From assembly GCA_043753995.1 (NCBI GenBank), contig JAYUVP010000132.1, forward strand, positions 1 through 21,086: a stretch of 21,086 nt of DNA, in the 5' to 3' direction. The DNA is from Fibrobacterota bacterium. GTDB taxonomy: Bacteria > Fibrobacterota > Fibrobacteria > UBA11236. Both the position numbers and the translations under genes were made by a program. The notes below the pieces were generated by a model, which was not told where the DNA came from, did no database searches, and saw only the letters and a list, made by a program, of their open reading frames with translations. Below, one piece after another: positions 2,706 to 21,086 of the stretch (positions within the stretch are counted from its first letter, which is position 1; every line of letters starts with the position of its first letter).

Positions 2706-2820
2706 TTCCAGAGGGTAGGCCGACACCTCTGTCCCTGCCGGTACACTACGGGTTAAGCCGCTGCATTGAGTTTCAGCGATGCCTCAATGGATCCTCAACG
2801 CAGGACAAGAACAGCAAGAT

Positions 2821-5695: not shown

Positions 5696-6865
5696 TCAAC
5701 GGAAGACAATATCATCCAGATCTACAAAGGTGCCGCCAATTGGAATTTGGAACTCAATGGCGAGCACCTTGCGTCCGAACACTTTCCAAGTCACTAGCGA
5801 ATCCGGCGTTTCGGGATCGGGTGTCATAGACGCCGTCGCCAGACAAGCATTGCGCCATTGGAGAGACGATGGAAGGGTCGAGGAAAGAGCCGGCCGCACT
5901 CCCGAAACGGAGTCGCGCTGAAACACGACATAGAGAAGGGTGTCGGTACGGTAGCTGAAGCAGACCTTACTGTAAGCGCTGATGTCCAGCGCGAGGCCGG
6001 TGAGGCCAAGAGCGAACCAACCGAAGTCCCCCGTGCCGGTGAATCGCGCATGAAAAACCTTTCCATTGCGCGTGGAATCAGGGCCCATGGCCTGGAGCAT
6101 ATCCGTTTCTTGGGAGGAAACCGGAAGGGTCATTTCCATTTGCGTTGTCCACGTATACCACGGAGACATGGCGGGTTGACTCTGAAAAAGCATCGGGAGA
6201 GTCGTGCCGGATTCGAAGTCGTCTATCCATAAGGGGGGTACCGTGGTGTCGCTGGTCAGGGTAACATTGCCGTTTCCTTCAAAACGTGTGATACCGTCTT
6301 CCAGGATGACGGTGCCCAAGGGGCGAAGTGCCCCCGTATCGGCATCGAAAACAAGGGAGTATTTCGCCTTCGGAATTCCGGTGAACGAGAACGATCCGTT
6401 CGCTTCCAGCAGCGCAGAATGAAAGGTGGAGTCGAGTAGCATGCGACCTTCGGCGGTTCCGGATCCTTCGGTCCAATGACCATGAATTTCACGCAAGGTA
6501 TCCAGGTGAATGGTTTGGCGGTCTCCTTCTTGGATGAAAATGCGTTTGGACCATGCGCCCAGGCCCTTCGCGGCATTGCGGATTTCGAGGAAGGCATAGG
6601 CTTCCTGCGGAAGCTGGATGATGCCTGCCGAGTCGCCAAAGGCGGTGTCGACCCAAGCGGGTTTGCTGGTGGGTATATCCCATTGGCGAGCGGCCAAAAG
6701 GACGCATCCGGGAAGGGGTTGTCCCTCCGGACCCAGTGCGACCACGGTACCGCCATTGGTGGTGGTCGTGGTTTTGCCCGCCACGGAATTGCTTTCGCAG
6801 GAGGCTAGAAACCAGGCCAATCCGGCGGTGAATAAACCCAGGAAATGCGAAAGGCTGCGGTTCAC
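5696..6865 (-). CDS. Lipoprotein with Ig/carboxypeptidase-regulatory-like domains and C-terminal CBM11/CIA30-like galactose-binding-fold domain
   Basis: The GTG start overlaps the upstream stop (GTGA) and has a GAGGA SD. Lipobox LASC is followed by VAGKTTTTTNG; NGSFSFTGIPKAKYSL in the middle; C-terminal WIDDFESG...LDISAYSKVCFSYR...VDLDDIVFR. Confidence 0.75.
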   Translation of the reverse strand: MNRSLSHFLGLFTAGLAWFLASCESNSVAGKTTTTTNGGTVVALGPEGQPLPGCVLLAARQWDIPTSKPAWVDTAFGDSAGIIQLPQEAYAFLEIRNAAKGLGAWSKRIFIQEGDRQTIHLDTLREIHGHWTEGSGTAEGRMLLDSTFHSALLEANGSFSFTGIPKAKYSLVFDADTGALRPLGTVILEDGITRFEGNGNVTLTSDTTVPPLWIDDFESGTTLPMLFQSQPAMSPWYTWTTQMEMTLPVSSQETDMLQAMGPDSTRNGKVFHARFTGTGDFGWFALGLTGLALDISAYSKVCFSYRTDTLLYVVFQRDSVSGVRPALSSTLPSSLQWRNACLATASMTPDPETPDSLVTWKVFGRKVLAIEFQIPIGGTFVDLDDIVFR

Positions 6866-7686
6866 CTGGATTCCTCGGGGAGTCGTGACAAGGGGAAAAG
6901 CTGTAAGTTCAAATGATAGACGCGATCCGACTTGGGTGAGTTCTCCACGAGCTTGGCAACATTGGCTTGAAATTCCCGGACGATGACCTTCAAGTCCGTC
7001 AAAGTTTGCGCGTCGATATTCATCGTCATCGTCGATATGTCCCGAAATTCGGCGGGCGTAACATCCAAGGAGCGGGAGGCCAATTCCATGGTGGTCTTCT
7101 GGAAAGACTTGATGGCCTCGGCCTTCCAGTTATCGCCCGAGTGGAGATGGGTGTCGATGATTTCGTAACCGGTTGCCGTCCTACGTGCCATCCCTATTCT
7201 TTCGAGCAGGAAAACGGCGCGCATGGCCTCGTCCGCAGGGACGGGGGGTGAGAGCCGGGAGCCCAAGGCCTCGTAGTCCCCGTCGAAAAGTTGGCAGTCG
7301 AGCAAGGATCGGAGCGCCACGTGAATCCAATTGGAGAAATACTCTTCTTGGTCTTCCCTCACCACGGTATAGCCCACGCCTCGCAGCTGCATCAAACGAT
7401 CGTGAAAGACGCGCGCCTGGTTTTCCGTTTTGGCCTTGTTGAAAGAAACCAGGTTTCGAAAGTATTCCAGAGATTCGTCGGTCAGGCCGAAAATGCCCGC
7501 CATGCGGTCCACCAAGTCGTCGCCCAGGTGGAGTTTTTTCTGTAATAGGCGAGTCAGATAGCTGGAATCCATCCCCACCTTGTTCCCGATGTAACGATAG
7601 GAAAAAGACCTTTTTTGCTTGCGGCGCTCCTCATAGGAGTCTTTAAGGTATTCCCTGTAATCGGAATAGTTGAACAAGTCGGGCAT
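6862..7686 (-). CDS. TIGR02147-family protein (N-terminal HTH-like region + DUF4423)
   Basis: 274 aa with family-typical LFNYSDYREYLKDSYEERR...FSYRYI, EYFRNLVSFNKAKT, YFSNWIHVALR, RDISTMTM and VYHLNLQLFPLS. Confidence 0.9.
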   Translation of the reverse strand: MPDLFNYSDYREYLKDSYEERRKQKRSFSYRYIGNKVGMDSSYLTRLLQKKLHLGDDLVDRMAGIFGLTDESLEYFRNLVSFNKAKTENQARVFHDRLMQLRGVGYTVVREDQEEYFSNWIHVALRSLLDCQLFDGDYEALGSRLSPPVPADEAMRAVFLLERIGMARRTATGYEIIDTHLHSGDNWKAEAIKSFQKTTMELASRSLDVTPAEFRDISTMTMNIDAQTLTDLKVIVREFQANVAKLVENSPKSDRVYHLNLQLFPLSRLPEESR

Positions 7687-7836
7687 TGAAACCCTAATCT
7701 AAACCCGGTCAGCCGCTCGGCTCGTCGAAATAGGGCGCCTCGATGGCAATATTTCCGTAAAATCCCAAGTTACTCGGGGCTTCCGCGCTCGTTGTCGCCG
7801 TTTTCGCCTGCGCCCGCCATCCCCTACAATGGATGG

Positions 7837-9072
7837 GTGATACACCAAGCTTGGGTCGCGCTATTTCCCTTGGCGACCTGTCTCCCGGTTTTTGCCGAGC
7901 GTCCCCTGGCGCCGGAAGCTCCGCTTTCCGTACCTTCGCTGGCCTATGGCCGCGGTGGAAGCAGCGCCCTGGAGGGCGTAGGCGGTCTCATGCACAATCC
8001 CGCCACCTTGCGATGGCGCGGCGGGGCCCAAGTCGAAATGGGCATGATTTCCTTGGCCTCGGGTCTTTCGCCTTATGCCGTGATGGGTTATCAAAATCCC
8101 GGAGGCTCGGCGGGAGCCTTGGGCGGCTTTCGCGCCGAAGCTGAGGACTATGCCTATCAGGGAGTCTTAGGGGGATTCACTTGGCCGCTGGGGGATGACG
8201 CCAGCGTGGGATTGGGCATTAGCGGTGTTTTTGCCCAGGGTGATTTCGGGGCCGATGCGCACGCGGGGCTTTGGACCCAGGTCGGAGATCATGGCGAGGC
8301 CGGTTTATTTGTGAAAAATATCATGGCTTCCGGATTAGGAGAAGTGCCGGAAGGCTTCAGTACGGATCGCGAAGTGGGCTTTGGTTTCGGAACGGCTTAT
8401 GAGCATGTTCGTCTATGGCGTTTTTCATTGCGCGATATCGGCTTGCATTATGATTTTGCCTCGGACCATTGGTTGCCTTCGGCCTGGCGGCATAGCGTCT
8501 CAGGACAAATTTGGCTGCCCCCTGGGGGCTCTTGGGGTTTGCTCACGGGCCTAAGCGTAGGCGGCGAGGATCCCTCACCCAAGCCTTCTTTCGGATTCGG
8601 CGCGCGCTTGCCTTTTGGGGGTGGAGCTTTGCGCATGACCTATGCCTTGTCTCCGTCCATGAAGGCCGAAGCGGGCCAAGGTCAAAGCCAAAGTTTGGCA
8701 TTGCACTATGAAGTGGGGCGTCAGAAAGATGTCTTGGCTCCGGAATTGCAAATCCATGCTTTGCCGTCGCGGATTTCCGTCGACAGCGTGGGAAAGGCCG
8801 GTTTGTATTTCCGCCTGCAAGCCGAAGATCCCGACGGCGAAACCGCCGAATGGGAATTATTGATTCTGCGCACGGACGCCTCGGGAAAGATCGGCGAAGC
8901 CGTGATGAGATATCACGGAAAGGAATTGCCGCCGCGCCTCATTCGATGGTCGGGCGATGATGTGGGCGGACAGGCAGTTGCACCTGGCTTATATGCTTAT
9001 CGCTTCGAGGCCGCCGACAAAGCGGGCCACGAAACCACGGCCCCCATTGGCTTAGTGGAATTGCTTCCTTAA
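7837..9072 (+). CDS. PorV/FadL-like outer-membrane beta-barrel fused to C-terminal FlgD-Ig-like domain
   Basis: Start placed at GTG 7837 (the ORF track gives 7792), with a signal peptide ending PVFA. SLAYGRGG...LMHNPATL resembles the plug motif and is followed by Gly/aromatic amphipathic strands. The C-terminal part reads WELLI...IRWSGDDVGGQAVAPGLYAYRFEAADKAGH. Confidence 0.65.
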   Translation: MIHQAWVALFPLATCLPVFAERPLAPEAPLSVPSLAYGRGGSSALEGVGGLMHNPATLRWRGGAQVEMGMISLASGLSPYAVMGYQNPGGSAGALGGFRAEAEDYAYQGVLGGFTWPLGDDASVGLGISGVFAQGDFGADAHAGLWTQVGDHGEAGLFVKNIMASGLGEVPEGFSTDREVGFGFGTAYEHVRLWRFSLRDIGLHYDFASDHWLPSAWRHSVSGQIWLPPGGSWGLLTGLSVGGEDPSPKPSFGFGARLPFGGGALRMTYALSPSMKAEAGQGQSQSLALHYEVGRQKDVLAPELQIHALPSRISVDSVGKAGLYFRLQAEDPDGETAEWELLILRTDASGKIGEAVMRYHGKELPPRLIRWSGDDVGGQAVAPGLYAYRFEAADKAGHETTAPIGLVELLP

Positions 9073-9097
9073 TATCGCTTCCATAATATCGTTTCCA
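9070..9097. repeat. Tandem 14-bp direct repeat
   Basis: TAATATCGCTTCCA (9070-9083) is followed directly by TAATATCGTTTCCA (9084-9097), with one mismatch. Confidence 0.8.
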
Positions 9098-9129
9098 TTG
9101 TTTGTTGCGACGGAATAATCTTTCCGCTG

Positions 9130-9152
9130 TGACATTTCAAAGTCATGACATT
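9130..9152. promoter_or_regulatory. Candidate operator upstream of the giant protease gene
   Basis: TGACATT occurs at 9130-9136 and 9146-9152, overlapping TGAC-N8-GTCA (9130-9145) and the palindrome GTCATGAC (9142-9149). Confidence 0.35.
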
Positions 9153-9358
9153 GTAAGAGTCCGGTAACGTTTTTTGATTTTCGTGCGTCCTATGATTAAT
9201 TCTTGGTATACCTTACGGTACCCTCGAAATCACCTGAATAAAAACGACGATTCCAGCCGTCGACTTTTATCCGGACGCTTTCGACCGCACTGATCAAACC
9301 ATCGTTTAACGGGCGCTCCCTCTTCGGGGCGCAGGCAAATCCTTTTGGAAGGACGCAT

Positions 9359-12300
9359 ATGCTGTACTCATCCCTATGGAAAAACCGCAAGCGCCTGGCC
9401 CTGGCTTTCTCCGCCGCCATGATGGTACCCATCCTCAGCCTTTCACAAAGTCGTCCTCCCGATCCTACAGCAGAATTACTACCGACTTCCCTGACTGCCA
9501 ATGTGGCGCATCAGGATGCACCAGTGGATTTGACCTCGACCTTGACCAATACCGGAGGGAGTCCGCTCACCTGGAGAATCGGTGCCATCCGCGACGTCAG
9601 CGCAGAATCTGCTCCAGCCGTTGCTACGGGACCTATAGCCACCGCGCGCCTTTATAATAAGACCCAGGTGCAAACCCTCGACTATGCTCCGGGGGAAATC
9701 ATCGTTGGGCTTAAAGAAGAGCCGGCAGGAACCGCAACCGGGAAAGTGGCTGCCAAGCCCGCTCCCACCGGTTTTCTCGGGGGCCGGGCCAAGGTCCGTC
9801 GCGAACTCATTCGCGCCCGCCGAGTTGAGCGCAAAATCCCCGGCGCCCGTCAGGCGGCCCCAGTTCAAAGACCCGGCCGCAAGCTTTTCTTGGTGGATGT
9901 CGCCGACAAAAGCAAGGCCGGCATGCAAAAGGCCATTGACGAATTGCGTAAAGATCCGACCGTGGCTTATGCCGAGCCGAATTATCAGTTGAAGGCCATA
10001 GGCATCCCCGACGATCCGCATTTTGACTTGCTCTATGGCATGCACAATGTCGGGCAAAATAATGGTGTGGTCGACGCCGATATCGATGCGCCCGAGGCTT
10101 GGGACATGGCCACGGGCGATGACAATGTGCTGGTGGGCGTCATCGACACGGGCATTGATTATTTGCATCCCGATCTCGTCGACAATATGTGGACCAATCC
10201 CGGAGAAATTCCCGGCAATGGCATCGATGATGAGGGCAATGGCTATGTCGATGACGTGCACGGCTATGACTTTGCGAATCATGATGGTGATCCGATGGAT
10301 GACCACTATCACGGCACGCATTGCGCCGGCACCATAGCGGCCCGCGGTAATAATGGCATTGGCGTTGCGGGCGTAGCCTGGAAGGCCAAGCTAGTCGCCC
10401 TTAAATTTTTAAGCGCAGGCGGTTCGGGCAGCACGGCGGATGCCATTGAAGCCATTGCCTATGCCAATGCCATGAATATTCCCATCACCAGCAATAGCTG
10501 GGGTGGAGGTGGTTTTTCCCAAGCGCTGAAAGACGTGATTGATGCGGGTGGCCAACGTGGCTTTTTGTTTGTCGCCGCTGCAGGCAATAATGGCAGCAAT
10601 GCCGATCAAATTCCGATGTACCCGGCCGCCTATGAAAGCGACAACATTATTTCGGTAGCTGCCACCGACAGTCGAGACGGCCTTGCCGGATTTTCCAATT
10701 ATGGCAGAGTCTCGGTGGATTTAGGTGCCCCGGGAGTCAGCATTTATAGCTGTCAGCCCGGCAACCGATATCAATATCTCTCGGGCACATCCATGGCCAC
10801 GCCCCATGTCGCCGGTGCCGCCACCTTGCTGAAGAGCTATAACCCGCAATTGGGTTATATCGACATCAAGGCTGCGCTGATGAGAAGCGTGGATTCGATA
10901 GCATCGCTGAGCGGGCGAGTCGCCAGTGAAGGGCGCCTCAATATCCAGCGCGCCTTGGGCATGGTGAATCCTCCTTGGGTGACCCTCGCCCCACGAGGAT
11001 CAGGTGAGCTTACCCCGGGCGCCTCCCAGGTTTTGACCGCGACGGTGAATCCGGCCGCGCTCACCGCGGGCGAACATCGCGCTCTGGTGCAAATCGTGAC
11101 TAATGATCCGGCCAATCCCAATCGCGAACTCGAGGTGGTGGCGCATGTCGCCCCTTGCCGTAACTTGTCTGTCACCCCAGAAGCGCTGGATTTCGGCGAC
11201 CTTTGGGAAGGCGCTTCGCGGGCGTTGACTTTGACCTTGAACAATTCTTGCAATGATGCCACTCGCTTGGACTCGGCCTTGTTCTCCGAAAGCGTTTTCA
11301 GCATTGCGAATGCTTTGCCCTTGACCGTACCAGCCTTCGGCAAGGCCACTTTAGAAGTGGTTTACCGACCTCCCGCCATTCAGGTGGATTCCGGCGTGGT
11401 GACTCTGGTGAGCAATGCCGAGGATCATTCCCGCATAGCCATTCCGCTGCGCGGTACGGGCATTGCCGCTCCGAGCATTGCCGTCAGCCCCTCCAGTTTC
11501 GAATTGACTTTGAATCCCAGTGAGCAAGCTATTCGTCAGTTCACGGTACGCAATACCGGCGGCGATGTTTTGACCCTGAAGCTGGCCTTTAAGGAAGGTT
11601 CGGCAGCCCAAGCGATAGGCCAGGCCTTATTGATTCCGGGGCAAGCCAAGAGTGGCGCGGCTTATGGTGATGGATTGCGTAAGAACTTGGTCGCTCCGAA
11701 AGGCAAGGTGGCAATCCGAGCCACAGGCGAAAGTCTCAGGGTGCTTTATCTCACCACTCTACTCGCGACGGGTCGATCAGATGATCTGGTTCGAGGCTTA
11801 CAGGGCTTGTCCAATGTGGCTTCGGTGGAAGTTTTAAATGGCCAATTCAATACACCGAATTTGGCGTATTTGCAAAACTTCGACATGGTCGTGGTATCCT
11901 CGAATTTTGGCTGGGCGGATCCTGTATTGCTGGGCAATACCTTGGCCGACTATGCCGATCAAGGTGGCGGGCTATGCCTCATGGTGGCCGCTCTCGCGAA
12001 CTCGGGGCCTTGGGGCTTGCTTGGTCGCATCACCACTCCTGAATACATGCCCATTCGCATGGCGGGTCCAGGGGTTGGCGGCCAAGCGGTTGAATTTGCG
12101 GCTCATCCCATCACGGCCGGGATGCAATCCCTGAGTTGCATTCTTCCCATCAAATCCTCCCAAACCCAGGGAGAGGGCATTGCCTTGGGTCATTATGCCA
12201 ATAGCACTCTTATTGGGGCGGTGAATCCGGCCAAACCCGTGGTGGCCATCAATGTTTTCCCCGCATCGGGGGCTTGGTCGGGAGATTTAGTGCTGATGGT

Positions 12301-15300
12301 GGGCAATAGTCTCGACTATCTGTCCAATGCCTCAGGTTGGGCCAAGGTGCAGCCCCGCAAGGCTTCGCTGGCTCCCGGCGATACTCTGAATTTCACGGTC
12401 ACCGTTTCAGCAGAAAAACAATTGGCCGGCGACCATTTGGGCAGTATAGCCATCGAGCATAATGCTCCCAGGGGAGATAATCCCCTGAATATTTCCTTGC
12501 TGATGCATGTGCGCCCGGTCAGCCTTTTGGCTTTGCCGGTACCCAAGCATGATTTCGGCGGCCTGCTCGTCGGCAATCAATCCCTGACAAACATAACTTT
12601 GATCAATTCTGGAAATCAAAGCACCACGGTGACCACGGTGGATTTGCCCAGCCCGTTTCACTTAAACACGGCCTTACCTCTCGTGATACCGGCTTTCTCC
12701 AAGGCGGAATTGGCTTTGACCTTTGCGCCGACGCTCGAAGGAGCGGTCTTAGGGATAGCCACTTTACATAGCAATGCGGCCGATCATCCCAGCTTGACCC
12801 TGGCCTTGCGGGGACAAGGTTTACCCGCGCCGATAGCCATGCTGACTCCGGAAAGCCTTTCCGTGAATCTGGCATACAATGCGGCGCCAGCGGATTTAAC
12901 CAGCATTTTGTCCAATCCAGGTCGCGGCGTTTTGAAATACACCGTTGGCGGATTTAAAGAAGTTCGCTCCGTCGCGACGGTAAACCTCTCCAAGGCCGTG
13001 CAAGCCGCGCGCATTTATCAAGCGGCCAATTACGATCGCGAAGCTATTCCTGGCGAATTGATTGTCGGCTTGCGCGAAAATACAGCGAGTATCGCCAATA
13101 TCACAGGCTTGGCATCGGTGGGTATCCAAGTCAAGCGTTCTGTATTGCGCGCCCGTTCAGCCAAAAGCGCCGTCCTGGGACAGCCCAAACGGAAAATATT
13201 GCTTGTCACCTATGCGGATGACTCCAAGGCGGGAATGCTGAGGGCCATCGAGGATCTGCGCAAAGACGCGAATGTGGCGTATGCCGAGCCGAATTATCGC
13301 CTCAAGGCCATAGCCACCCCCAATGATCCCGATTTCGGCTTGCTTTACGGTCTGCACAATGAGGGTCAAACCGGTGGCAGCAACGATGCGGACATTGATG
13401 CGCCCGAGGCCTGGGATAATTACACGGGAGAACACAATGTCATTGTCGGCATCATCGATACCGGCATTGATTATTTGCATCCCGATCTCGTCGATAATAT
13501 TTGGACCAATGCCGGAGAAATTCCCGGCAATAGCGTTGATGATGATGGCAATGGCTATGTCGATGATGTGCATGGATATGATTTCGCCAATCAAGATTCC
13601 GATCCCTATGATGATCACTTTCATGGGACCCATGTGGCGGGAACCATAGCAGCCAGCGGCAATAATGGCCTAGGCATTGTGGGTGTCGCCTGGAAGGCTA
13701 GGCTTGCCGCCCTCAAATTCCTCGATGCCGGTGGTTCGGGCTCCCTTGATGCTGCCGTAGAGGCCATCGCCTATGCCAATGCCATGGGCTTTCCCATCAC
13801 CAGCAATAGCTGGGGTGGCGGCGGCTTTTCCCAGGCGCTCAAGGACGTCATCGATGCCGGTGGCGAACAGGGCAATTTATTCGTCGCGGCTGCGGGAAAT
13901 GATTATTCCGACAATGATCAATACCCGGCTTATCCAGCGAGCTATGAAAGCGACAATATTATTTCCGTTGCTGCGACCAATAGCACGGATGGCAAAGCCG
14001 ACTTTTCGAATTACGGCGCCGCCACGGTGGATTTGGGCGCACCCGGCGTTGAGATATACAGCTGCGCTCCTGGTCAAGGTTATCAATATCTCTCGGGAAC
14101 ATCCATGGCCACGCCTCATGTCTCGGGCGCGGCGGCCTTGCTAAAAAGTTTTAATCCCCAAATGGAATATGCCCAGATCAAGGCCGCCCTTCTCGCCAGC
14201 GTCGATACCTTGTCTTCCTTACAGGGATTGGTGCTTAGCCAGGGTCGCCTGAATGTGCAGAAAGCCCTAGCCAACCTTTCCCCGCCTTGGGTAAGCCTAT
14301 CCCCGCGCGGATCGGGCCAAGTGGAACCCGGCGCTTCTCAAGCCCTGAATGTTCGCGTCGATCCGAAGGGATTGGTGGCTGGCGAACATCGCGGGTCTTT
14401 TACCCTGACCACCAATGATCCCAAGGCTCCGACCAAGACCTTGAGCATTGCCGCCACGGTGAGTGGCTGCCGTAACCTGTCGGTGACCCCTACCGCCCTC
14501 GATTTCGGATTGGTTTGGACGGGCTCCAGCAAGCGACTGGCCTTGAGCCTGGTCAATACTTGCAATGACTTCACCCAGGTGAATGCGGTGGAGCTGTCGC
14601 ATAAGACTTTCACCCGCCTTTTCGACTTGCCCGTACAAGTGCCGCCCTTCGGCAGCATTCAACTTGAAATCCTTTACACACCCGATGATCTGAACCAGGA
14701 CAAAGCCACCATCACGGTGAAAAGCAATGCGCAAAACCAAGCTTCCATCAAGGTATCGGCCAAGGGCACCGGCGTAAAGCCTCCGTCGATATCAGTCAAT
14801 CCCACCAAGGTGAATTTGACTATGGATCCCTCCGAGCAAAGGACTTCGGTGATCAAGGTGAGCAATAAAGGCGGAGCCGAAATGCGTGTCGCTTTAAGCT
14901 TGTCCCTGGATAAGAAAAAAGCCGACTCCGGTCTCGCACCTAAGGTATTGGTCTTGCCGCGTAAGGTCGGTTCGCCTTACCCTACTCATGCCTCCCCTTC
15001 CTTGAAGCCCAAAACCATTCACCCCATGGTTAAAGCTTCGGCTTCGGGTTTGAAAGTGCTATACCTCACCACCCTATACCTTCCCGATAGCCTGGATGAT
15101 GGTTTTATGCAAGGCATACGTGGCTTGCCCCAGGTCGCGGTTTTGGAAAGACTCGACGGCACGGTGAATGTGCCCAATGCCGACTTCTTGTCTGGCTATG
15201 ACGTGGTGCTGGTTTCGGCGGGAGAAGGGTGGGCTGATCCCGTTGCCATCGGAGATGCCTTGGCCGAATACGTTGATGCCGGAGGCAAGGTCTGCCTTTT

Positions 15301-18300
15301 AGTTGCGGCTATCGCAAATGGCGGACCCTATGAATTACAAGGACGAATCGCAACTCCTGATTATTTGCCCATGGTAAAGGCTGGCCCCGGCTATGGGGGA
15401 CAGGTCACGACTTTTACCGACCATCCCATTACCCAAGGTTTGAGTTCTATTGAATGTTTTGCGACTACCATGGCAAGTGAAACGCAAGGCAATGGCATAT
15501 CCCTTGGCCTCTACCCCTACGGAGAATTGCTTGGCGCCGTGAATCCCGACAAAGCCGTGGTTGCCATCAATGTTTTTCCGGCGGACGGGTTTTGGGCGGG
15601 CGATCTCATCCTCATGATGTCCAATACCCTCGACTACTTAGGGTCCATGTCCCGCTGGGCTAAAATTGAGCCGGCCCAATTGGTGATACCTCCAGGAAAA
15701 ACCGTCGAAGCAAAAGTGATTTTCGATACCGAAAACCTCGCGGCGGACCTTTATACTGGAACGCTTAAGCTCACCCATAATGCACCGGGCCAAGTCAATC
15801 CCCTGACGGTGCCTCTGAGCCTCACGGTCAAGTCGAAGAATTGCCTGGAGACTTCAGTCGCCGTCATCGACTTCGGGAAGGTCTGGACGGATCGCTATGC
15901 TCAGGCAACCGTGACGTTAAAAAATCCTTGCAATCAACCTACCCAGGTGAATTCCCTGGCCTTGTTGCCCAAGGTGTTCAAAACTTCGGTCGTGAAGCCA
16001 CTGACGGTAGACGCTTTCTCCGAAGTTGCCGTGGAATTGACCTATACACCCGACGATTTGTATCCAGACTTGGGCGGCTTGGTAATCAAGAGCAATGCCA
16101 AGGATAATCCCTTGGTCTTAATTGCACTCAAGGGTACGGGCATTCGTCCACCCTCGATTTCTATCAAGCCTTCGGCTTTGAATGTCGCCTTGGATCCCGG
16201 CGTGCAAGTCGCAAAATCCCTGGATATCTTCAATGCGGGTGGCGACACCTTGCGCTTGGCGGTGGCCGTCAAATCGGTGGCCGATGTCGCGAAGGGCAAG
16301 GCTCAGCCAAAAATCCTTCCCGGCAAAGCATCCATGGCTCGTCCCTTGGTCGGTAAGAAGCGCCCCATTTTGCCGCATGCTTCTGCGCGCGATTACCGTC
16401 CCCAGGCGGGAGGCAGTCTCAAGGTCTTGTATTTGCAAGCCATGGGAATCCCGACGGAAGGCGATTCCTTTGTGCAAGGACTGCGTGATCTGGCCAATGT
16501 CGACATCGTGGATCTTGTAGACATTCGCGAAGGCACGCCCAATCTTGAATATCTCCAAGCCTATGACGTAGCCTTGGTTTCTACGGACAATCCAGCCGCC
16601 GATCCTAAGGCTTTGGGGGATGTTTTGGCCGACTATGTCGATGCCGGAGGAAAAATCGCCATAATGGGGGCGACCTTTTACTCGGATTCTCCATTGGGCC
16701 TGGGCGGTCGTATTATGGATACGGCCTATTTGCCCATCCATCGGGGATATTTCACCAATGGTTTTAATTCGAAATCCCTTGTCGACCATCCCATCAATGA
16801 AGGCATCGGTTATATCAACTCCTATACTGTGATAGAAGCGGATTCGACGGTCGGTGCGGGTTTACCCCTCGGTAATTATGAGACGGGGTCCTTGACAGGA
16901 GCCTATCACGCCATAAAACCCATCGTTGCCTTGAATTTTTTCCCCATCGATGGCTTTTGGGGCGGGGACATTCTATTGATGATGGGTAACACTTTGGATT
17001 ATTTGGCCAATTCGATTCGGTGGATGAAACCCAAGGCCAAATCCTTGCTTGTGCCTCCGGGTAAAACCGTGAAATTGCCGGTGAATTTCAGCACTGAGGA
17101 AATGGTTGCTGGCCAATATGAAGGCATCTTGCGGTTCACCCACAATGCCCCCGCAATCACGACACCCTTGAATATCCCGGTCACACTTCAAGTGAAGAGT
17201 AAGCGTTGCTTGGCCGTCGAGCCTGCCACCTTGGATTTTGATAAAACCTGGAAAGGCGGATCCGATACTTTGGATTTGAGCCTTATCAATCGCTGCAATG
17301 AACCTACTCGCATCGAAAGTGTTCGCTTCGACGATGGGGCCTACAGTTCTGCGAATGCCATGCCCATGCTTGTCGAGCCCTTCGCGACCACGAAAATTCG
17401 CTTGGTATTCGCGCCCAAGGACACCAAGGTGCATAAAGGCAAGGCGGAAATTCGCAGCAATGCGCAAGACAATTCCCGCCTGATGGTGAGCTTGAAAGGA
17501 CAAGGCGTTTTGCCGCCGACGATTGCGGTGACGCCGGGCGAAATCAAGGTCAGCGTCAATGCGGGCGAAGTGAAGACTCAAAGCCTGACCCTCAGCAATA
17601 AGGGCGGGGACACCTTGGTGGCAACCCTCTCTTCTTCGGTAGAGTCAAAAACGGTGGCACCTAAGGCCGCGATGACATCCCTGGCGGTTGCCGGATACCA
17701 CGTGCTCTACCTAACGGATATGACGACCGACTCGATGGGATACGATCCCTTTGTAGAAGGCCTGAGATCCTTACCCAAGGTGGCGAGCCTAGATGTCGCG
17801 AATATCAACAACGTCAACCGCCAGGTGGACTTCCTTCTAGGATATGATCAAGTGGTAGTGGCCACGGTCAATGGCATCAAGGATTCCAAAGGCCTGGGCG
17901 ACGCTTTAGCCGATTATGTGGATTTGGGTGGGCGCATTTGCTTGATGAATGGCACTCTTACTAATTATGAATGGCTGAGAATAGAGGGTCGTATTTCCAC
18001 TCCGGAATACCTGCCCATGGTTCAAGCCGAAGGTGGATTTGGCGGTATCGTGACTTCCTTTGTGGATCATCCCATCAATGCGGGCATCAGTTATTTGGTT
18101 TCCTGGAGTCCCACGGTTTCGACGGAGGTGCAGGGCTATGGTCAACCCCTGGGTTACCTCGAGTCGGGTGCCTTGTTAGGCGCTTGGAATACCCAGAAGG
18201 CGGTGGTGGCCTTAAATATTTTGCCTTTCTTTGGGGCTTGGAATGGCGACTTAATTCCCATGATGGGCAATATTTTTGATTTTCTTGTCACCCGGAATAC

Positions 18301-19825
18301 TTGGCTAAAAGCGGCACCGAAGTCCTTGCGCATTCCTCCTGGAGGCACGGCGGTGGCCACGGTCACTCTCGATGGCAGTCGTATTGAGGCGGGCGCTTAT
18401 ATTGGTGCCGTCACGGTTGACCATAATGTTCCCGGCAAGTCGGCGATTCTCTTACCGGTAAATTTCACCGTGGGTGGTCGACTTGGAATCGAAGTCTCGA
18501 CGACTTCCTTAGATTTTGGGTCGACCTTGCTAGGGGATTCCGCTTCCCAGTCCTTTTCGGTATTGAATACTGGAAACCTTCCTGTTACGGTATCCGCTCA
18601 GTTCACCGGCAATTCCGCCTTTGCCCTGGACGCGTCTTTCCCAAGGAGGATAGAAGCAGGGCGATGGCTTACGCTGAATGCGACCTATACCCCAACTCTG
18701 CCAGGCGGCGCATCGGCGACCTTGATCTTCGAGGCCGCTGACTTGGCTCCCTTGACCGTAAGCATGACGGGCCTAGGGATTCGTCCAGCCGACTTGGTAG
18801 TAACTACCGCTCCCAGCCCCTTACTTTTTGACCTTCACCTGGATGGGCAGGATTCCGGCGAAATCGTATTGGCCAATGCGGGGGACGAGGACCTCACCTA
18901 CCGATTGTTTTTCCGGCCTGTCGTCTCGGATTCGCTCCCTCCGGATACCACAGGGACGGATACGCTCAAGGTTTATGGAGCTTCGCATTATGCACCCTTA
19001 ATCAAGGGCGCTCTGGATACCCGGGTAGGCGCTCCGGTCACGACGGCATTCGGCGGCCCCGATTCCTATGGCTACCGATGGTTTGATTCGCAGTATGAGG
19101 GAGGCCCTGCTTTCAAGTGGGTCGACATTTCGCGGAGCGGGCAACGGCTAGCCACGGTATCGAATTGCGATGACTGCTTCGAGAGCGTGCGCTTATCCTT
19201 CGCTTTCCCCTTCTATGGTCGGGCCTTTGAATCGGTATTCGTCAGCTCCAATGGATATGTCACTTTTGACACGGGTAGCGCGGCATTTTCCAATCATCCC
19301 TTGCCCAGCGCCGTCATGCCGAGTTCCCTGGTGGCGGCATTATTTCAAGACCTTTACCCTGCGGCCGAAGGCGCGATTTATTTCCAAGATTTTGGAGACC
19401 GGGCGGTTTTGCAATTCCAAAACGTCCCTGATTTTCTTGGCACGGGGCGATATGACTTCGAAATCATTCTTCGCGCTGATGGCATTATCGATTTGCAGTA
19501 CTTGACCTTGACCGGAGTTAAAAATACCGCGACGGTGGGTATTCAAAATGGATTGAAAGCGGATGGCCTTACCGTGGTCTATAATGCCGATTATTTGCAG
19601 GACAATCTTGCCATTCGTCTTCGCACTTGGTTGGCCTTGCCTCCCACCGTGGGAATCCTAGCCGGCCAGGAACAAAAGCGAGTGAAGGTGTCGGTGGACT
19701 CCCGGACCATGCCCCCTGGCAATTATCACGAAACGCTTAAAGTGGAGGGCCATGGCTCAAAGACTTTTGAGAGCGTGGAAATCCCGGTGGATATGACAAT
19801 TAATCCCGCCGCGGCGAAAAAATGA
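9359..19825 (+). CDS. Giant (3488 aa) secreted multidomain protein with two S8 subtilisin-like peptidases, ASH/choice-of-anchor-D Ig domains, four GATase1-like alpha/beta repeats and a nidogen-like domain
   Basis: AAGGA SD and a Sec signal peptide. Two full motif sets: IDTG (Asp codons 10145, 13457), HGTH (His 10310, 13622), AAAGN and GTSMATPHV (Ser 10790, 14102). Six DFG/DFD...G.G spacer domains, four VLYL...LA(D/E)Y.D.GG...HPI repeats, and GGPDSYGY...FPFYG...VSSNGYVTF near the C-terminus. Confidence 0.95.
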   Translation: MLYSSLWKNRKRLALAFSAAMMVPILSLSQSRPPDPTAELLPTSLTANVAHQDAPVDLTSTLTNTGGSPLTWRIGAIRDVSAESAPAVATGPIATARLYNKTQVQTLDYAPGEIIVGLKEEPAGTATGKVAAKPAPTGFLGGRAKVRRELIRARRVERKIPGARQAAPVQRPGRKLFLVDVADKSKAGMQKAIDELRKDPTVAYAEPNYQLKAIGIPDDPHFDLLYGMHNVGQNNGVVDADIDAPEAWDMATGDDNVLVGVIDTGIDYLHPDLVDNMWTNPGEIPGNGIDDEGNGYVDDVHGYDFANHDGDPMDDHYHGTHCAGTIAARGNNGIGVAGVAWKAKLVALKFLSAGGSGSTADAIEAIAYANAMNIPITSNSWGGGGFSQALKDVIDAGGQRGFLFVAAAGNNGSNADQIPMYPAAYESDNIISVAATDSRDGLAGFSNYGRVSVDLGAPGVSIYSCQPGNRYQYLSGTSMATPHVAGAATLLKSYNPQLGYIDIKAALMRSVDSIASLSGRVASEGRLNIQRALGMVNPPWVTLAPRGSGELTPGASQVLTATVNPAALTAGEHRALVQIVTNDPANPNRELEVVAHVAPCRNLSVTPEALDFGDLWEGASRALTLTLNNSCNDATRLDSALFSESVFSIANALPLTVPAFGKATLEVVYRPPAIQVDSGVVTLVSNAEDHSRIAIPLRGTGIAAPSIAVSPSSFELTLNPSEQAIRQFTVRNTGGDVLTLKLAFKEGSAAQAIGQALLIPGQAKSGAAYGDGLRKNLVAPKGKVAIRATGESLRVLYLTTLLATGRSDDLVRGLQGLSNVASVEVLNGQFNTPNLAYLQNFDMVVVSSNFGWADPVLLGNTLADYADQGGGLCLMVAALANSGPWGLLGRITTPEYMPIRMAGPGVGGQAVEFAAHPITAGMQSLSCILPIKSSQTQGEGIALGHYANSTLIGAVNPAKPVVAINVFPASGAWSGDLVLMVGNSLDYLSNASGWAKVQPRKASLAPGDTLNFTVTVSAEKQLAGDHLGSIAIEHNAPRGDNPLNISLLMHVRPVSLLALPVPKHDFGGLLVGNQSLTNITLINSGNQSTTVTTVDLPSPFHLNTALPLVIPAFSKAELALTFAPTLEGAVLGIATLHSNAADHPSLTLALRGQGLPAPIAMLTPESLSVNLAYNAAPADLTSILSNPGRGVLKYTVGGFKEVRSVATVNLSKAVQAARIYQAANYDREAIPGELIVGLRENTASIANITGLASVGIQVKRSVLRARSAKSAVLGQPKRKILLVTYADDSKAGMLRAIEDLRKDANVAYAEPNYRLKAIATPNDPDFGLLYGLHNEGQTGGSNDADIDAPEAWDNYTGEHNVIVGIIDTGIDYLHPDLVDNIWTNAGEIPGNSVDDDGNGYVDDVHGYDFANQDSDPYDDHFHGTHVAGTIAASGNNGLGIVGVAWKARLAALKFLDAGGSGSLDAAVEAIAYANAMGFPITSNSWGGGGFSQALKDVIDAGGEQGNLFVAAAGNDYSDNDQYPAYPASYESDNIISVAATNSTDGKADFSNYGAATVDLGAPGVEIYSCAPGQGYQYLSGTSMATPHVSGAAALLKSFNPQMEYAQIKAALLASVDTLSSLQGLVLSQGRLNVQKALANLSPPWVSLSPRGSGQVEPGASQALNVRVDPKGLVAGEHRGSFTLTTNDPKAPTKTLSIAATVSGCRNLSVTPTALDFGLVWTGSSKRLALSLVNTCNDFTQVNAVELSHKTFTRLFDLPVQVPPFGSIQLEILYTPDDLNQDKATITVKSNAQNQASIKVSAKGTGVKPPSISVNPTKVNLTMDPSEQRTSVIKVSNKGGAEMRVALSLSLDKKKADSGLAPKVLVLPRKVGSPYPTHASPSLKPKTIHPMVKASASGLKVLYLTTLYLPDSLDDGFMQGIRGLPQVAVLERLDGTVNVPNADFLSGYDVVLVSAGEGWADPVAIGDALAEYVDAGGKVCLLVAAIANGGPYELQGRIATPDYLPMVKAGPGYGGQVTTFTDHPITQGLSSIECFATTMASETQGNGISLGLYPYGELLGAVNPDKAVVAINVFPADGFWAGDLILMMSNTLDYLGSMSRWAKIEPAQLVIPPGKTVEAKVIFDTENLAADLYTGTLKLTHNAPGQVNPLTVPLSLTVKSKNCLETSVAVIDFGKVWTDRYAQATVTLKNPCNQPTQVNSLALLPKVFKTSVVKPLTVDAFSEVAVELTYTPDDLYPDLGGLVIKSNAKDNPLVLIALKGTGIRPPSISIKPSALNVALDPGVQVAKSLDIFNAGGDTLRLAVAVKSVADVAKGKAQPKILPGKASMARPLVGKKRPILPHASARDYRPQAGGSLKVLYLQAMGIPTEGDSFVQGLRDLANVDIVDLVDIREGTPNLEYLQAYDVALVSTDNPAADPKALGDVLADYVDAGGKIAIMGATFYSDSPLGLGGRIMDTAYLPIHRGYFTNGFNSKSLVDHPINEGIGYINSYTVIEADSTVGAGLPLGNYETGSLTGAYHAIKPIVALNFFPIDGFWGGDILLMMGNTLDYLANSIRWMKPKAKSLLVPPGKTVKLPVNFSTEEMVAGQYEGILRFTHNAPAITTPLNIPVTLQVKSKRCLAVEPATLDFDKTWKGGSDTLDLSLINRCNEPTRIESVRFDDGAYSSANAMPMLVEPFATTKIRLVFAPKDTKVHKGKAEIRSNAQDNSRLMVSLKGQGVLPPTIAVTPGEIKVSVNAGEVKTQSLTLSNKGGDTLVATLSSSVESKTVAPKAAMTSLAVAGYHVLYLTDMTTDSMGYDPFVEGLRSLPKVASLDVANINNVNRQVDFLLGYDQVVVATVNGIKDSKGLGDALADYVDLGGRICLMNGTLTNYEWLRIEGRISTPEYLPMVQAEGGFGGIVTSFVDHPINAGISYLVSWSPTVSTEVQGYGQPLGYLESGALLGAWNTQKAVVALNILPFFGAWNGDLIPMMGNIFDFLVTRNTWLKAAPKSLRIPPGGTAVATVTLDGSRIEAGAYIGAVTVDHNVPGKSAILLPVNFTVGGRLGIEVSTTSLDFGSTLLGDSASQSFSVLNTGNLPVTVSAQFTGNSAFALDASFPRRIEAGRWLTLNATYTPTLPGGASATLIFEAADLAPLTVSMTGLGIRPADLVVTTAPSPLLFDLHLDGQDSGEIVLANAGDEDLTYRLFFRPVVSDSLPPDTTGTDTLKVYGASHYAPLIKGALDTRVGAPVTTAFGGPDSYGYRWFDSQYEGGPAFKWVDISRSGQRLATVSNCDDCFESVRLSFAFPFYGRAFESVFVSSNGYVTFDTGSAAFSNHPLPSAVMPSSLVAALFQDLYPAAEGAIYFQDFGDRAVLQFQNVPDFLGTGRYDFEIILRADGIIDLQYLTLTGVKNTATVGIQNGLKADGLTVVYNADYLQDNLAIRLRTWLALPPTVGILAGQEQKRVKVSVDSRTMPPGNYHETLKVEGHGSKTFESVEIPVDMTINPAAAKK
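9464..15830 (+). repeat. Intragenic tandem duplication with about 3312-nt period (S8 unit + alpha/beta unit)
   Basis: The catalytic Asp, His and Ser codons and the PPW Trp codon (10976/14288) are all offset by exactly 3312 nt. The VLYL motif is offset by 3315 nt. A 32-nt identical run lies at 10151-10182 and 13463-13494. Confidence 0.9.
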
Positions 19826-19851
19826 AGCTGCGATTTTATTAGTTAAGGGAA

Positions 19852-21086
19852 ATGGCCGAACCTTCCTCCCCACTGACCGGTTTGCAAAGGGCCTTGGCCT
19901 ATTTGCATGAGGAAATCGAGCTGAAGCCCGGGCCGCCGGGCACCAGGCTTCCGACCGTGCGTCGCCTCGCCCAGGCTGCTGGGGTGGCCACGCGCACCCT
20001 CTGCGAGGCCTTAGCCGATTTGGAAAAGCGTGGGGTGGTGCAAAGCATTCCCAAGCGCGGCACTTTTTTTCAACGCCCCCCTGAGCCCACCCAGCCTATT
20101 TCAGCGGAAGAGAAATGGGAATTATTGTCGACACGCATCGAGCGCGATGTGCTCGCTGGCCATTTCCGTCCCGGCACTTCCCTGCCGCAGCTGCGCGAAT
20201 TGCAAGAGCATTATGGAGTCTCCTATCCGACACTTCGCAAAGCCCTGGAAATTCTGGTTCGCAGGGGAGTGCTCTTTCCCCACAAGCGCGCCTTTCGGGT
20301 GGCTCCCGCGCGTCAGGTGCTGGGCCAGGCTTCGCTGATATGCATTGGCTTGGGCGATGAAACCGGCCGCCTGCTGATTCAGAATCCCCGTTTTCAGGAA
20401 TTCGTTTTCGCTCTGCAAAATGCCGCCGCGATTCAACAAATACGGCTGACCCTCATCGGCCATACGCCGCGCCAGGGTCTAGCCTCTCTTTTCGATCGCA
20501 TCGCCTCGTTACGCACCCAGCAAAGCTGCATTGGCTTCGTGCTTTGGAATACCCATGTGCCGCCAGCGGCTTTTCTCAAAACTGTGGCGCATGTAAAAAG
20601 CTTTGGCCAACCTGTGGCCGTGATGGACGAGAAAAACAATCTCGATCTCGATCAGCCATTATTGCAGGATGGCGCCATCCGATCTTTCACCATTGCGGGC
20701 GTTGGCGCGGGACGGCAAATCGCGCGCTATTTACTGGGCTTGGGTCATCGTCGCGTGGCCTTTCTTTCCTGTTTTCATGGCGAGGGCTGGTCGCAGCGGC
20801 GGTGGCGTGGCGTGCAAGAGGTTTTCCGCACCGCCGGGCAATCAGAAAATCTCCGCCTGCTTTCCTTGGACGAAAGCGATGCCCTGTGGGAGCCCCAGCA
20901 TTCGCCTCCTGCCTTACGCGGCATTTACGAACATTTCCGGGCTTTTCTGACCGATGTGCGACAAGCCGCAAAAACCTATCCTGCGGCGCATCAGCTTTTG
21001 TATTTACAGCAAAACAATGAAAAACTCATGCGCGATTTGCGTATGGCCATGAGCATGCATCCTCTGCTCGATGCCTTGGCCGAAGA
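19852..21086 (+). CDS. Transcriptional regulator with two tandem GntR winged-HTH domains and a LacI-type ligand-binding domain, 3' truncated
   Basis: Not in the ORF track because there is no stop in the window. ATG 19852 follows AAGGGA. HTH 1: PGTRLPTVRRLAQAAGVATRTLCEALADLEKRGVVQSIPKRGTF. HTH 2: PGTSLPQLRELQEHYGVSYPTLRKALEILVRRGVL. LacI-like part: AGRQIARYLLGLGHRRVAFL...SQRRWRG. Confidence 0.9.
   Translation, partial: MAEPSSPLTGLQRALAYLHEEIELKPGPPGTRLPTVRRLAQAAGVATRTLCEALADLEKRGVVQSIPKRGTFFQRPPEPTQPISAEEKWELLSTRIERDVLAGHFRPGTSLPQLRELQEHYGVSYPTLRKALEILVRRGVLFPHKRAFRVAPARQVLGQASLICIGLGDETGRLLIQNPRFQEFVFALQNAAAIQQIRLTLIGHTPRQGLASLFDRIASLRTQQSCIGFVLWNTHVPPAAFLKTVAHVKSFGQPVAVMDEKNNLDLDQPLLQDGAIRSFTIAGVGAGRQIARYLLGLGHRRVAFLSCFHGEGWSQRRWRGVQEVFRTAGQSENLRLLSLDESDALWEPQHSPPALRGIYEHFRAFLTDVRQAAKTYPAAHQLLYLQQNNEKLMRDLRMAMSMHPLLDALAE

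Follow-up and report, generated by a model that had tools for sequence, protein, structure and literature searches.

Split Ig-like domains with inserted subtilases and non-enzymatic modules in a giant, probably exported protein of the Fibrobacterota

Introduction

In RrgA, the pilus tip adhesin of S. pneumoniae, domain D3 lies inside D2 and D2/D3 inside D1, with beta-sandwiches formed from N- and C-terminal segments, and D2 is reported to re-form spontaneously from its two separated halves (PMC5333627). Here we describe a single gene on a contig of 21,086 nucleotides (nt) from a Fibrobacterota bacterium (GenBank assembly GCA_043753995.1, contig JAYUVP010000132.1; this whole stretch of DNA, one 21-kb contig of a 5.2-Mb genome bin, is called the window), whose product of 3488 amino acids (aa) appears to follow the same principle of split beta-sandwich hosts with inserted domains. 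RrgA is one nested set within a four-domain Gram-positive pilin with isopeptide bonds, a sortase signal and a vWA-type adhesin insert, whereas the giant protein uses the ASH/PapD-like fold family seven times in series, at one loop, with zymogen cargo and without an LPXTG motif.

Concerning the proteases, the giant protein resembles the C5a peptidase ScpA, lactocepin-type cell-envelope proteinases (CEPs) and fervidolysin, i.e. large exported proteins that combine an S8 protease and its prodomain with several beta-sandwiches. In these enzymes a contiguous N-terminal domain forms the protease, into which a PA domain is inserted in some cases, and the sandwiches come after it; in the giant protein, in contrast, prodomain and protease as a whole are the insert and the sandwich is the host. 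The closest solved catalytic domain belongs to deseasin MCP-01 of Pseudoalteromonas sp. SM9913 (PDB 3vv3), a free secreted enzyme with a C-terminal PKD domain, but with neither a split host domain nor a scaffold. A further likeness is to cellulosome scaffoldins, in which a long non-catalytic backbone presents enzyme and binding modules side by side. Cellulosomes, however, are assembled non-covalently via cohesin-dockerin pairs and carry glycoside hydrolases, whereas the giant protein is one polypeptide, has no cohesin or dockerin among the 15 Pfam families found in it at E <= 0.01 and contains enzymes in only two of its seven modules. A preliminary description, made from the letters alone, had called the protein a covalent protease analogue of a cellulosome; this holds as an analogy for the backbone that presents modules and is overstated in the other respects.

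The host domain belongs to the superfamily that forms tandem arrays in HYDIN, CEP192/SPD-2, CFAP65/74 and bacterial choice-of-anchor D proteins, and its best fold matches are HYDIN and CEP192 domains. Such arrays are described as contiguous domains, and serial insertion of cargo at the C-C' loop is absent from the literature that we found, in which the papers on ASH, HYDIN and PapD-like domains all dealt with eukaryotes. Four of the inserted modules share their fold with STM3548 (2gk3), the ThuA-like 1t0b/4jqs, 3rht, the N-terminal domain of IFT52 (5fms) and the GH42 middle domain; they differ from these non-catalytic GATase1-like proteins in sequence, their identity to solved relatives being 8-16 %. 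Supplements aside, the literature on ASH, PapD-like, nested or giant proteins yielded no account of an ASH-type domain as serial insertion host at one loop, of whole zymogen proteases as such inserts or of a family-wide grammar. The available text of a giant-gene and Omnitrophota study (10.1101/2023.11.21.568195) holds no split Ig domains, and the arrangement in the corresponding part of PMC11982257 is different from the split-host plan. Nested insertion into beta-sandwiches and large subtilases with trailing sandwiches are already known; the serial variant with an ASH host appears to be new, and the preliminary description had named it a candidate for an undescribed system.

Results

Seven split units in one reading frame

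The whole finding lies within a single open reading frame (9359..19825, + strand; 3488 aa), and the frame around this gene is open over 3527 codons. Its product repeats the order N-half of an immunoglobulin (Ig)-like host domain, cargo, C-half and intact ASH domain seven times, minus the ASH domain after the last unit. Accordingly, every second of the 13 Ig-like domains is split at the same loop to hold a side module, and these modules comprise two subtilisin-type proteases and five non-enzymatic ones. The N-halves of units 1 to 7 (U1 to U7) start at residues 36, 704, 1157, 1808, 2264, 2719 and 3143 (nt 9464, 11468, 12827, 14780, 16148, 17513 and 18785), and the envelopes of a C-half profile hidden Markov model (HMM) begin at residues 538, 992, 1642, 2098, 2553, 2980 and 3422, within 6 nt of the positions given in the preliminary description. 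The sequence motif on which that description was built is present in all seven N-halves and all seven C-halves. Its cargo order (prodomain and S8, alpha/beta, prodomain and S8, three times alpha/beta, nidogen-like or NIDO-like) is reproduced by Pfam and HMM scans, and the six uninterrupted domains that it placed between units are found by ASH HMM and Pfam matches.

When the 13 segments were compared with each other by blastp, U1 and U3 were 61 % identical over 565 aa, the alpha/beta units U2, U4, U5 and U6 shared 35-43 % over ~350 aa and the six ASH-like spacers 24-43 %, while units with different kinds of cargo gave short cross-matches in their C-terminal 45-60 residues. Successive sandwiches are joined by linkers of ~3-8 residues, as read from the sequence, which makes it plausible that the 13 sandwiches form an extended stalk of short-linked domains. 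The protein finishes 6 residues past the last C-half (...DMTINPAAAKK, followed by the stop codon). The features, all on the + strand, are given below with the evidence for each of them, which includes models made with AlphaFold2 and their predicted local distance difference test (pLDDT) values.

9359..9451, +: start codon and predicted Sec signal peptide (residues 1-31, MLYSSLWKNRKRLALAFSAAMMVPILSLSQS); basic n-region, hydrophobic core and small residues S-Q-S read from the translation
9464..9604, +: U1 N-half of the host ASH-like domain (residues 36-82); motif; whole unit 63 % identical to U3 in the alignment; S8-type against alpha/beta-type N-half profile, hhalign 97.2 %
9611..10969, +: U1 cargo, fervidolysin-like prodomain and S8 subtilase (residues 85-537; D263, H318, N410, S478); Pfam Peptidase_S8 and Fervidolysin_NPro-like, motif positions
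10970..11158, +: U1 C-half (residues 538-600); C-half HMM E 2.1e-05; weak Pfam HYDIN_VesB match at profile positions 54-97 of 100 only
11159..11467, +: intact ASH / choice-of-anchor D spacer 1 (residues 601-703); ASH HMM E 4e-41; Pfam ASH, HYDIN_VesB and Cep192_D4 and NCBIfam NF012200 above cut-off for the protein
11468..11596, +: U2 N-half (residues 704-746); N-half HMM E 3.2e-17; row in the alpha/beta-unit alignment A1
11597..12331, +: U2 linker and GATase1/ThuA-like cargo (residues 747-991); 43 % identical to U4; cargo HMM E 1.3e-84; fold inferred from the U4 model
12332..12529, +: U2 C-half (residues 992-1057); C-half HMM E 2.7e-21
12530..12826, +: intact ASH spacer 2 (residues 1058-1156); ASH HMM E 1.2e-35; blastp to other spacers
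12827..12964, +: U3 N-half (residues 1157-1202); four strands in the AlphaFold2 model, block pLDDT 89-96; aligns together with the C-half to single ASH domains
12965..14281, +: U3 cargo, prodomain and S8 subtilase (residues 1203-1641; D1367, H1422, N1514, S1582; prodomain end motif AYAEPNY 1307-1313); VIA-align 3vv3_B Z 46.8, 53 % identity; invariant triad columns in alignment A2
14282..14473, +: U3 C-half (residues 1642-1705); C-half HMM E 1.6e-08; five strands in the AlphaFold2 model; VIA-align
14474..14779, +: intact ASH spacer 3 (residues 1706-1807); best Pfam stretch for HYDIN_VesB Ig (1707-1801) and ASH (1709-1796)
14780..14911, +: U4 N-half (residues 1808-1851); AlphaFold2 strands 4-7, 11-15, 20-29 and 35-44, pLDDT ~90; VIA-align rows span model residues 1..353
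14912..15649, +: U4 linker (~45 aa, low pLDDT) and GATase1/ThuA-like cargo (residues 1852-2097); VIA-align 2gk3_A Z 16.5, 3rht_A Z 15.7, 1t0b_A Z 15.4; Foldseek ThuA-like 4pxy_A E 4.1e-06
15650..15847, +: U4 C-half (residues 2098-2163); AlphaFold2 strands 294-297, 300-303, 308-316, 323-333 and 342-350; VIA-align
15848..16147, +: intact ASH spacer 4 (residues 2164-2263); ASH HMM E 3.4e-40
16148..16276, +: U5 N-half (residues 2264-2306); N-half HMM E 3.7e-16
16277..17014, +: U5 linker and GATase1-like cargo (residues 2307-2552); cargo HMM E 4e-80; 40 % identical to U4
17015..17212, +: U5 C-half (residues 2553-2618); C-half HMM E 2.8e-24
17213..17512, +: intact ASH spacer 5 (residues 2619-2718); ASH HMM E 3.2e-42
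17513..17641, +: U6 N-half (residues 2719-2761); N-half HMM E 8.6e-16
17642..18295, +: U6 short linker and GATase1-like cargo (residues 2762-2979); cargo HMM E 1.2e-75
18296..18484, +: U6 C-half (residues 2980-3042); C-half HMM E 2.8e-20
18485..18784, +: intact ASH spacer 6 (residues 3043-3142); best Pfam stretch for Cep192_D4 and DUF1573; NF012200 3044-3127
18785..18928, +: U7 N-half (residues 3143-3190), diverged; alignment A3 of 11 NIDO-type units; hhalign to the alpha/beta-type N-half 98.4 %; two-chain fold test with weak support
18929..19621, +: U7 cargo, NIDO-like module (residues 3191-3421); Pfam NIDO E 0.0021, 18.6 bits against a cut-off of 25; nearest ESM Atlas cluster NIDO domain-containing, score 0.97
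19622..19825, +: U7 C-half (residues 3422-3488) and stop codon, no further C-terminal domain; C-half HMM E 7.6e-05; Pfam BACON_2 profile positions 32-87 of 94 only

The halves as complementary parts of one domain

An HMM built from the C-halves of the alpha/beta units alone also matches the C-halves of U1, U3 and U7 (E 2.1e-05, 1.6e-08 and 7.6e-05, respectively). Profile-profile comparison with hhalign connects the alpha/beta, S8 and NIDO classes in both halves, with probabilities of 96.9-98.4 % for the N-half profiles (E 1.6e-10 to 8.8e-15) and 98.6-99.6 % for the C-half profiles (E 1.1e-15 to 1.1e-24). The N-halves of U1, U3 and U7 are, by these sequence comparisons, a diverged subtype that is recognised only by profile-profile comparison and by eye. 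Aligned to the intact ASH spacer, the N-halves fall on positions 2-38 and the C-halves on 54-98, colinear but weak (14-72 %). Each half of the units in the window matches only the corresponding half of Ig profiles: in Pfam, the isolated halves give nothing but half-profile matches below threshold (E 0.0043 to 0.17), which for the C-halves cover HYDIN_VesB 50-97 of 100, BACON_2 32-87 of 94 and DUF1573 45-94 of 98, and for the N-half of U4 Cep192_D6 3-42 of 101. The six intact spacers, on the other hand, exceed the Pfam cut-offs by far, with 113.6 bits for PF15780 (cut-off 27), 138.5 for PF22544 (25.5) and 134.3 for PF22073 (35.5). NCBIfam NF012200, named choice-of-anchor D after C-terminal sorting signals of several kinds, reaches 191.9 bits (cut-off 45) in four stretches, all in spacer-type domains.

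Among 422 N-to-C pairs identified in 169 relatives (see below), the host domain is found uninterrupted, with a gap of <=10 residues, in 19 pairs. Six of these stretches were taken to Pfam; four reach the BACON_2 and/or HYDIN_VesB Ig cut-off over nearly the full profile and two stay below. The break point is constant, as the C-half match begins at HMM position <=5 in 95 % of the 422 pairs and the N-half match extends to position >=35 of 43 in 90 %, which supports the one fixed insertion loop proposed in the preliminary description.

Structure models of the host domain

U4 was folded with AlphaFold2 on an alignment of 21 units from the window, a paralogue and 12 other genomes of the phylum, and U3 on 29 sequences; both models were then used in VIA-align structural searches, which for U4 covered 48,161 chains. 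In the U4 model (pLDDT 86.5, predicted template modelling score, pTM, 0.74), residues 4-44 form four strands and residues 294-350 another five; between them lie a linker of ~45 residues with little order and, at 89-291, an alpha/beta domain. Residues 1..353 of this model match 7n6g_4C with a Z-score of 13.8 and a root-mean-square deviation (rmsd) of 1.7 Å, 102 residues being aligned to chain positions 787..891; the PapD-like domain of HYDIN (2e6j, 112 residues) follows with Z 11.9, rmsd 1.9 Å and 100 aligned residues, and the ASH domain of CEP192 (6fvi) with Z 12.8. In the search with the U3 model (residues 1..549; pLDDT 84.6, pTM 0.80), single ASH domains occupy ranks 45-50 after 44 subtilase rows, with 100-110 aligned residues and Z 11.7-13.5, including 7n6g_4C (Z 13.5, 103 aligned), 2qsv_A (Z 12.7) and 6fvi_A (Z 12.4). 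Taken together, the two hosts match ASH/PapD-like domains with Z 11.7-13.8 over 97-114 aligned residues at an rmsd of 1.7-3.0 Å, or 1.7-2.6 Å for the alignments of ~100 residues. Since the two halves total ~105 residues and ~100 of them align to one domain, both halves must lie on one sandwich in these models: in U4 and U3, the four N-terminal and five C-terminal strands are predicted to close into a single sandwich with the cargo on its side, as had been anticipated from the sequence. For U1, U2, U5 and U6 the same would follow by homology to U3 and U4.

For U7, the N-half (48 aa) and the rest of the unit (298 aa) were folded as two chains. This gave weak support with a score of 0.60, the best of three controls being 0.00; contacts agreed between runs to >=90 % and the partner pLDDT was >=80. 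Of 157 solved complexes, 116 reach the mark used in this test, as do 2 of 215 mismatched pairs; these counts hold only roughly, since U7 was folded on an alignment of our own. Just 18 of the 157 complexes reached the mark with a score of 0.60 or under, and so did both passing mismatches.

In the alpha/beta units the cargo passes straight into the C-half without a linker. The linker between N-half and GATase1-like domain (U4 model residues 45-88; window 14912..15043) is ~45 aa long, poorly ordered and variable in length; it is absent in U6 and holds an invariant proline, P77, and a short strand.

Cargo modules

The S8 domains match Pfam PF00082 in two stretches (E 4.3e-118), and the catalytic sets of U1 and U3 are complete, with Asp, His and Ser in D-T-G, H-G-T-H and G-T-S-M motifs plus the oxyanion Asn; triad and oxyanion columns are invariant across the 29 aligned sequences. 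The closest solved structure to the U3 model is deseasin MCP-01 (3vv3_B; Z 46.8, rmsd 1.6 Å, 311 aligned residues, 53 % identity), and 7bj3_A (ScpA), 5xyr_A and 1r6v_A (fervidolysin) are among the S8 matches as well. The prodomain is recognised by PF22148 (Fervidolysin_NPro-like, E 2.2e-11). Subtilase prodomains act as inhibitor and chaperone and are removed autocatalytically. The pro-forms 3whi_B and 3afg_B (unprocessed pro-subtilisin, Tk-SP) and 1r6v_A align from residues 56-75 of the U3 model onwards, and 3whi_B and 1r6v_A cover it from residue 58 or 75 to ~486, prodomain included.

The alpha/beta cargo (U4 model 89-291) has a GATase1/ThuA-like fold, with Z 13.7-16.5, 179-209 aligned residues and 8-16 % identity; it also matches the N-domain of IFT52 (5fms) with Z 13.7 and many true GATases with Z 11.7-13.4. 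Among the cargo columns that are invariant or nearly so across the 21 aligned units, none is Cys, His, Glu or Ser; the Cys-His-Glu triad of class I glutamine amidotransferases is thus missing, and the four modules are not amidotransferases. In Pfam, U2, U4, U5 and U6 have no match to GATase, ThuA (PF06283) or DUF4350 (PF14258) families at E <= 1, and relatives reach 27.5-28 bits for ThuA and DUF4350, under the cut-offs of 30.4 and 33.4. With this low identity and no match to a Pfam family, no function can be transferred to the GATase1-like cargo. The cargo of U7 matches NIDO (PF06119) with 18.6 bits (cut-off 25, E 0.0021), a relative, P0018, with 31 bits, and in the nearest ESM Atlas cluster (score 0.97) NIDO is present in 54 % of the members.

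Relatives and their modules

A search with U4 against 1.84 billion representatives returned 1403 matches at E <= 0.001, 401 at 1e-10 and 69 at 1e-30, mostly proteins of 2000-6000 aa, many of them matched across the entire unit. The best 150 of the 1403, together with 19 from a second search, are the 169 relatives that were scanned with the HMMs. They contain 436 N-halves, 509 C-halves and 422 N-to-C pairs, but as the query was a whole unit, these counts describe the family and not bacteria at large. The gap between the halves is >=60 residues in 398 pairs, 11-59 in 5 and <=10 in 19, and an intact ASH domain stands within 15 residues after 277 and before 295 of the 422 units.

By BLAST, the cargo that the 398 cargo-bearing units (cargo >=60 aa) hold at this loop forms at least 29 clusters: 190 are alpha/beta, 36 NIDO-like, two unnamed clusters have 34 members each, 11 are pro-S8, and the remainder are smaller clusters, with 10 singletons. 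Among 11 cargo representatives taken to Pfam, three were above cut-off, namely Laminin_G_3, a lamin-tail domain (LTD) and an InhA-like MAM domain; the other eight gave one propeller below threshold, one marginal DUF4350 and six without a match. The inserts accepted by the host sandwich range from ~120 to >500 residues, and up to 10 inserted modules per chain occur among the relatives examined. The seven-unit order recurs in P0151 (3537 aa; 448-kb contig), which shares 54 % identity with the window protein in U4, while P0152, P0002 and P0003 have five (S8, three alpha/beta, NIDO).

A paralogue in the same genome, on another contig, reads M4 leader, ASH, alpha/beta unit, ASH, unit with a 164-residue cargo, ASH, S8 unit, ASH, NIDO unit. 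With its different order of modules and the many cargo clusters, the preliminary view of swappable modules is supported, and the grammar with other modules is common to the paralogue and to hundreds of giant proteins, mostly of the Fibrobacterota. That the same grammar recurs with other modules across the family points to the host domain as a general insertion platform. The paralogue (locus L006, G000:C137, 1211..8707, - strand) has 2498 aa, a signal peptide and an N-terminal FTP domain with an M4 thermolysin-like protease, which was checked and is not inserted in a host domain; its 164-aa cargo resembles the LTD cargo of P0032. Next to it, at 8715..11138 (-), lies a gene for an 807-aa protein with PA14 and four Ig_3/I-set domains, which ends 8 nt before the start of the paralogue.

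Where relatives have M4, C25 or reprolysin domains, these are located N-terminally and precede the repeats. S8 domains occur in two settings, either as a flush insert between N-half and C-half as in the window, or as an N-terminal leader protease that is mostly followed ~110 residues on by an N-half and in a few proteins by a C-half or another module. In free-standing S8 genes of the phylum (~450 aa) the match is confined to U3 residues 140-485. A U4-like unit at E <= 1e-10 is present in 15 of 296 genomes of the phylum and in none of the 151 of its largest family, and a U3-like match at E <= 1e-40 in 51 of the 296. By their source names the relatives belong to Fibrobacteria, Chitinispirillaceae, Chitinivibrionales and one Polarisedimenticolia; their public names are only 'S8 family serine peptidase', 'choice-of-anchor D domain-containing protein' and 'M4 family metallopeptidase'. 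In P0163 and its cluster (JGI, 'subtilisin family serine protease', 2248 aa) GATase1-like, NIDO-like and pro-S8 units adjoin without ASH spacers, so the spacer is not obligatory; LRR and Calx-beta domains come after the three cargo units of P0163.

Discussion

Based on these data, we consider it likely that the giant protein is a Sec-exported modular protease and binding scaffold, an extracellular, protein-degrading stalk built by a grammar of host and spacer that is repeated seven times with inserted cargo. Each host, an ASH/PapD-like Ig domain, would be split at the loop after the fourth strand (C-C' loop), where a module is inserted, and an intact ASH domain would follow. Outside the cytoplasm, the chain would act as a stalk that holds two broad-range endopeptidases beside five non-catalytic modules, which probably bind ligands or mediate contacts, and protein-rich polymers in the sediment might in this way be bound and cut for uptake.

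The two subtilases would be made as zymogens. As prodomain and protease sit inside the host loop, normal autoprocessing would sever the backbone within the host domain, presumably after AYAEPNY (1307-1313), in the low-confidence stretch 1319-1349 of the U3 model. After this cut, the pieces would be clasped solely by the two-chain sandwich, and the prodomain would stay tethered beside the protease. We raise, as a tentative and on balance doubtful extension, the idea that the host ASH domain is an evolvable display platform, its C-C' loop being taken to accept dozens of unrelated folded modules, and that the autoprocessed product consists of chains clasped non-covalently by two-chain beta-sandwiches, with the tethered prodomain as an activity latch.

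Several points weigh against the protease and binding scaffold. The structural evidence consists of predicted models, in which the single sandwich was read from alignment ranges and aligned lengths rather than from contacts; for U7 the joining of N- and C-half into one sandwich has the weak support of the two-chain test. The N-half HMM derived from the alpha/beta units does not match the N-halves of U1, U3 and U7 at E <= 0.01, and the unit counts in the 169 relatives are enriched by construction through the whole-unit query. What the GATase1-like and NIDO-like modules do is a guess, read from the absence of catalytic residues. Regarding export and attachment, the sequence shows no lipobox, and no LPXTG or membrane anchor at the C-terminus, and neither Por_Secre_tail, the sign of the type IX secretion system (T9SS), nor another sorting domain is among the Pfam matches of the protein at E <= 0.01; in the whole genome Por_Secre_tail has six matches at E <= 0.001, two over the cut-off and none on this contig. 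Export by the T9SS finds no support in these matches. The relatives P0005 and P0006 carry PF18962.

Among the alternatives, the one with the most in its favor, which we nevertheless regard as rather unlikely, is a structural surface fibre or adhesin, in which the ASH domains and the five other modules attach to particles, prey or kin and the subtilases only mature or shed the fibre. Non-enzymatic modules make up five of the seven, relatives carry lectin-like or adhesion-type modules (Laminin_G_3, LTD, MAM, propeller blades, LRR, Calx-beta), ASH/PapD-like arrays are known as structural projections (HYDIN, CEP192), and proteases inside the chain could conceivably cut the chain itself. However, the S8 domains share 53 % identity with 3vv3_B, a secreted enzyme that degrades collagen, and relatives have extra N-terminal proteases of a digestive type (M4, C25, reprolysin), for which a degradative role fits better than self-maturation alone. 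That the halves are independent small beta domains flanking the cargo as linear beads, with the sandwich as an artefact of AlphaFold2, seems improbable to us. The predicted nature of the models and the N-terminal S8 domains that lack an N-half ahead of them in some relatives would suit such beads, but neither the 44-residue piece with four strands nor the 57-residue piece with five contains a complete pair of sheets, the two halves fit jointly onto single ASH domains in two independent models and match complementary halves of Ig profiles, the host domain occurs uninterrupted in relatives, and an N-terminal S8 domain is mostly followed, ~110 aa on, by a fresh N-half and not by a flush C-half.

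There is very little, finally, to suggest that the seven-unit gene was falsely assembled from repeated modules or that it is decaying. The source is a metagenome bin, the gene has internal repeats, and in two sediment metagenome runs from a single study, in which the window DNA is found and which may be its source, Logan contigs cover only 9000-13703 and 18447-20000; the missing cover in between speaks for neither view. But with 35-61 % identity at the protein level the repeats are too diverged for an assembler to collapse or chain, the frame is open for all of its 3527 codons, and the 54 %-identical protein on the 448-kb contig keeps the order of all seven units. Moreover, the letters agree wherever the window is covered, with 0 differing letters in six Logan records (1, 3, 4, 5, 6, 8), possibly from the source sample. 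Some short Logan contigs of low depth (156-236 nt) each share 18-21 nt with the gene at two separate sites, 10133-10153 / 13400-13417 and 11054-11071 / 12554-12572, and differ in the letters in between; they probably stem from other organisms or match by chance and do not reflect a rearrangement.

The split-host plan gives a rule by which a large group of giant bacterial surface proteins without annotation can be read, in which domain finders show 'S8 peptidase' or 'choice-of-anchor D' and long unexplained gaps: such gaps would be modules at the loop of a split Ig-like domain. It also provides a natural template for protein display, a small sandwich that tolerates inserts of ~120 to >500 residues, raises the question of the fate of a self-cleaving protease within another domain's loop, and hints at how uncultured sediment Fibrobacteria may attack proteins.

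Genomic context

The neighbours of the giant gene are unrelated to it (BNR/sortilin-like, DUF1080, PPC-like lipoprotein, TIGR02147 and GntR-type regulator). Directly upstream, 7792..9072 (+) encodes a 426-aa protein without a Pfam family, whose last ~70 residues have a weak likeness to part of Lsa66, an adhesin (NF053608, E 2e-05). This gene is kept in 25 of 39 genomes of the order (the unpublished G254 included), but was rejected as a partner, as in relatives it lies on other contigs than the homologues of the giant gene. The locus is therefore a single gene and not a multi-gene system, contrary to the wording of the preliminary description.

Downstream, 19852..21084 (+) runs off the contig and encodes a regulator with tandem GntR-type helix-turn-helix domains (residues ~28-80 and 90-145), followed by a periplasmic-binding-protein-like part. 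On the opposite strand, the TIGR02147 gene (6862..7686, -; Fsuc_second, DUF4423) overlaps by 4 nt with a 389-aa gene without a family (5696..6865, -), and the two may be a coupled pair. The presence of a TIGR02147 gene is in keeping with an origin in the Fibrobacterota. The gene at 4432..5319 (-) encodes 295 aa with a lipoprotein-like N-terminus, a weak match to PPC (pre-peptidase C-terminal, E 0.002) and a second, similar-looking half. At 201..2726 (-) lies the gene for an exported 841-aa protein with BNR / Sortilin-Vps10 repeats, which may be a glycoside-hydrolase-like propeller.

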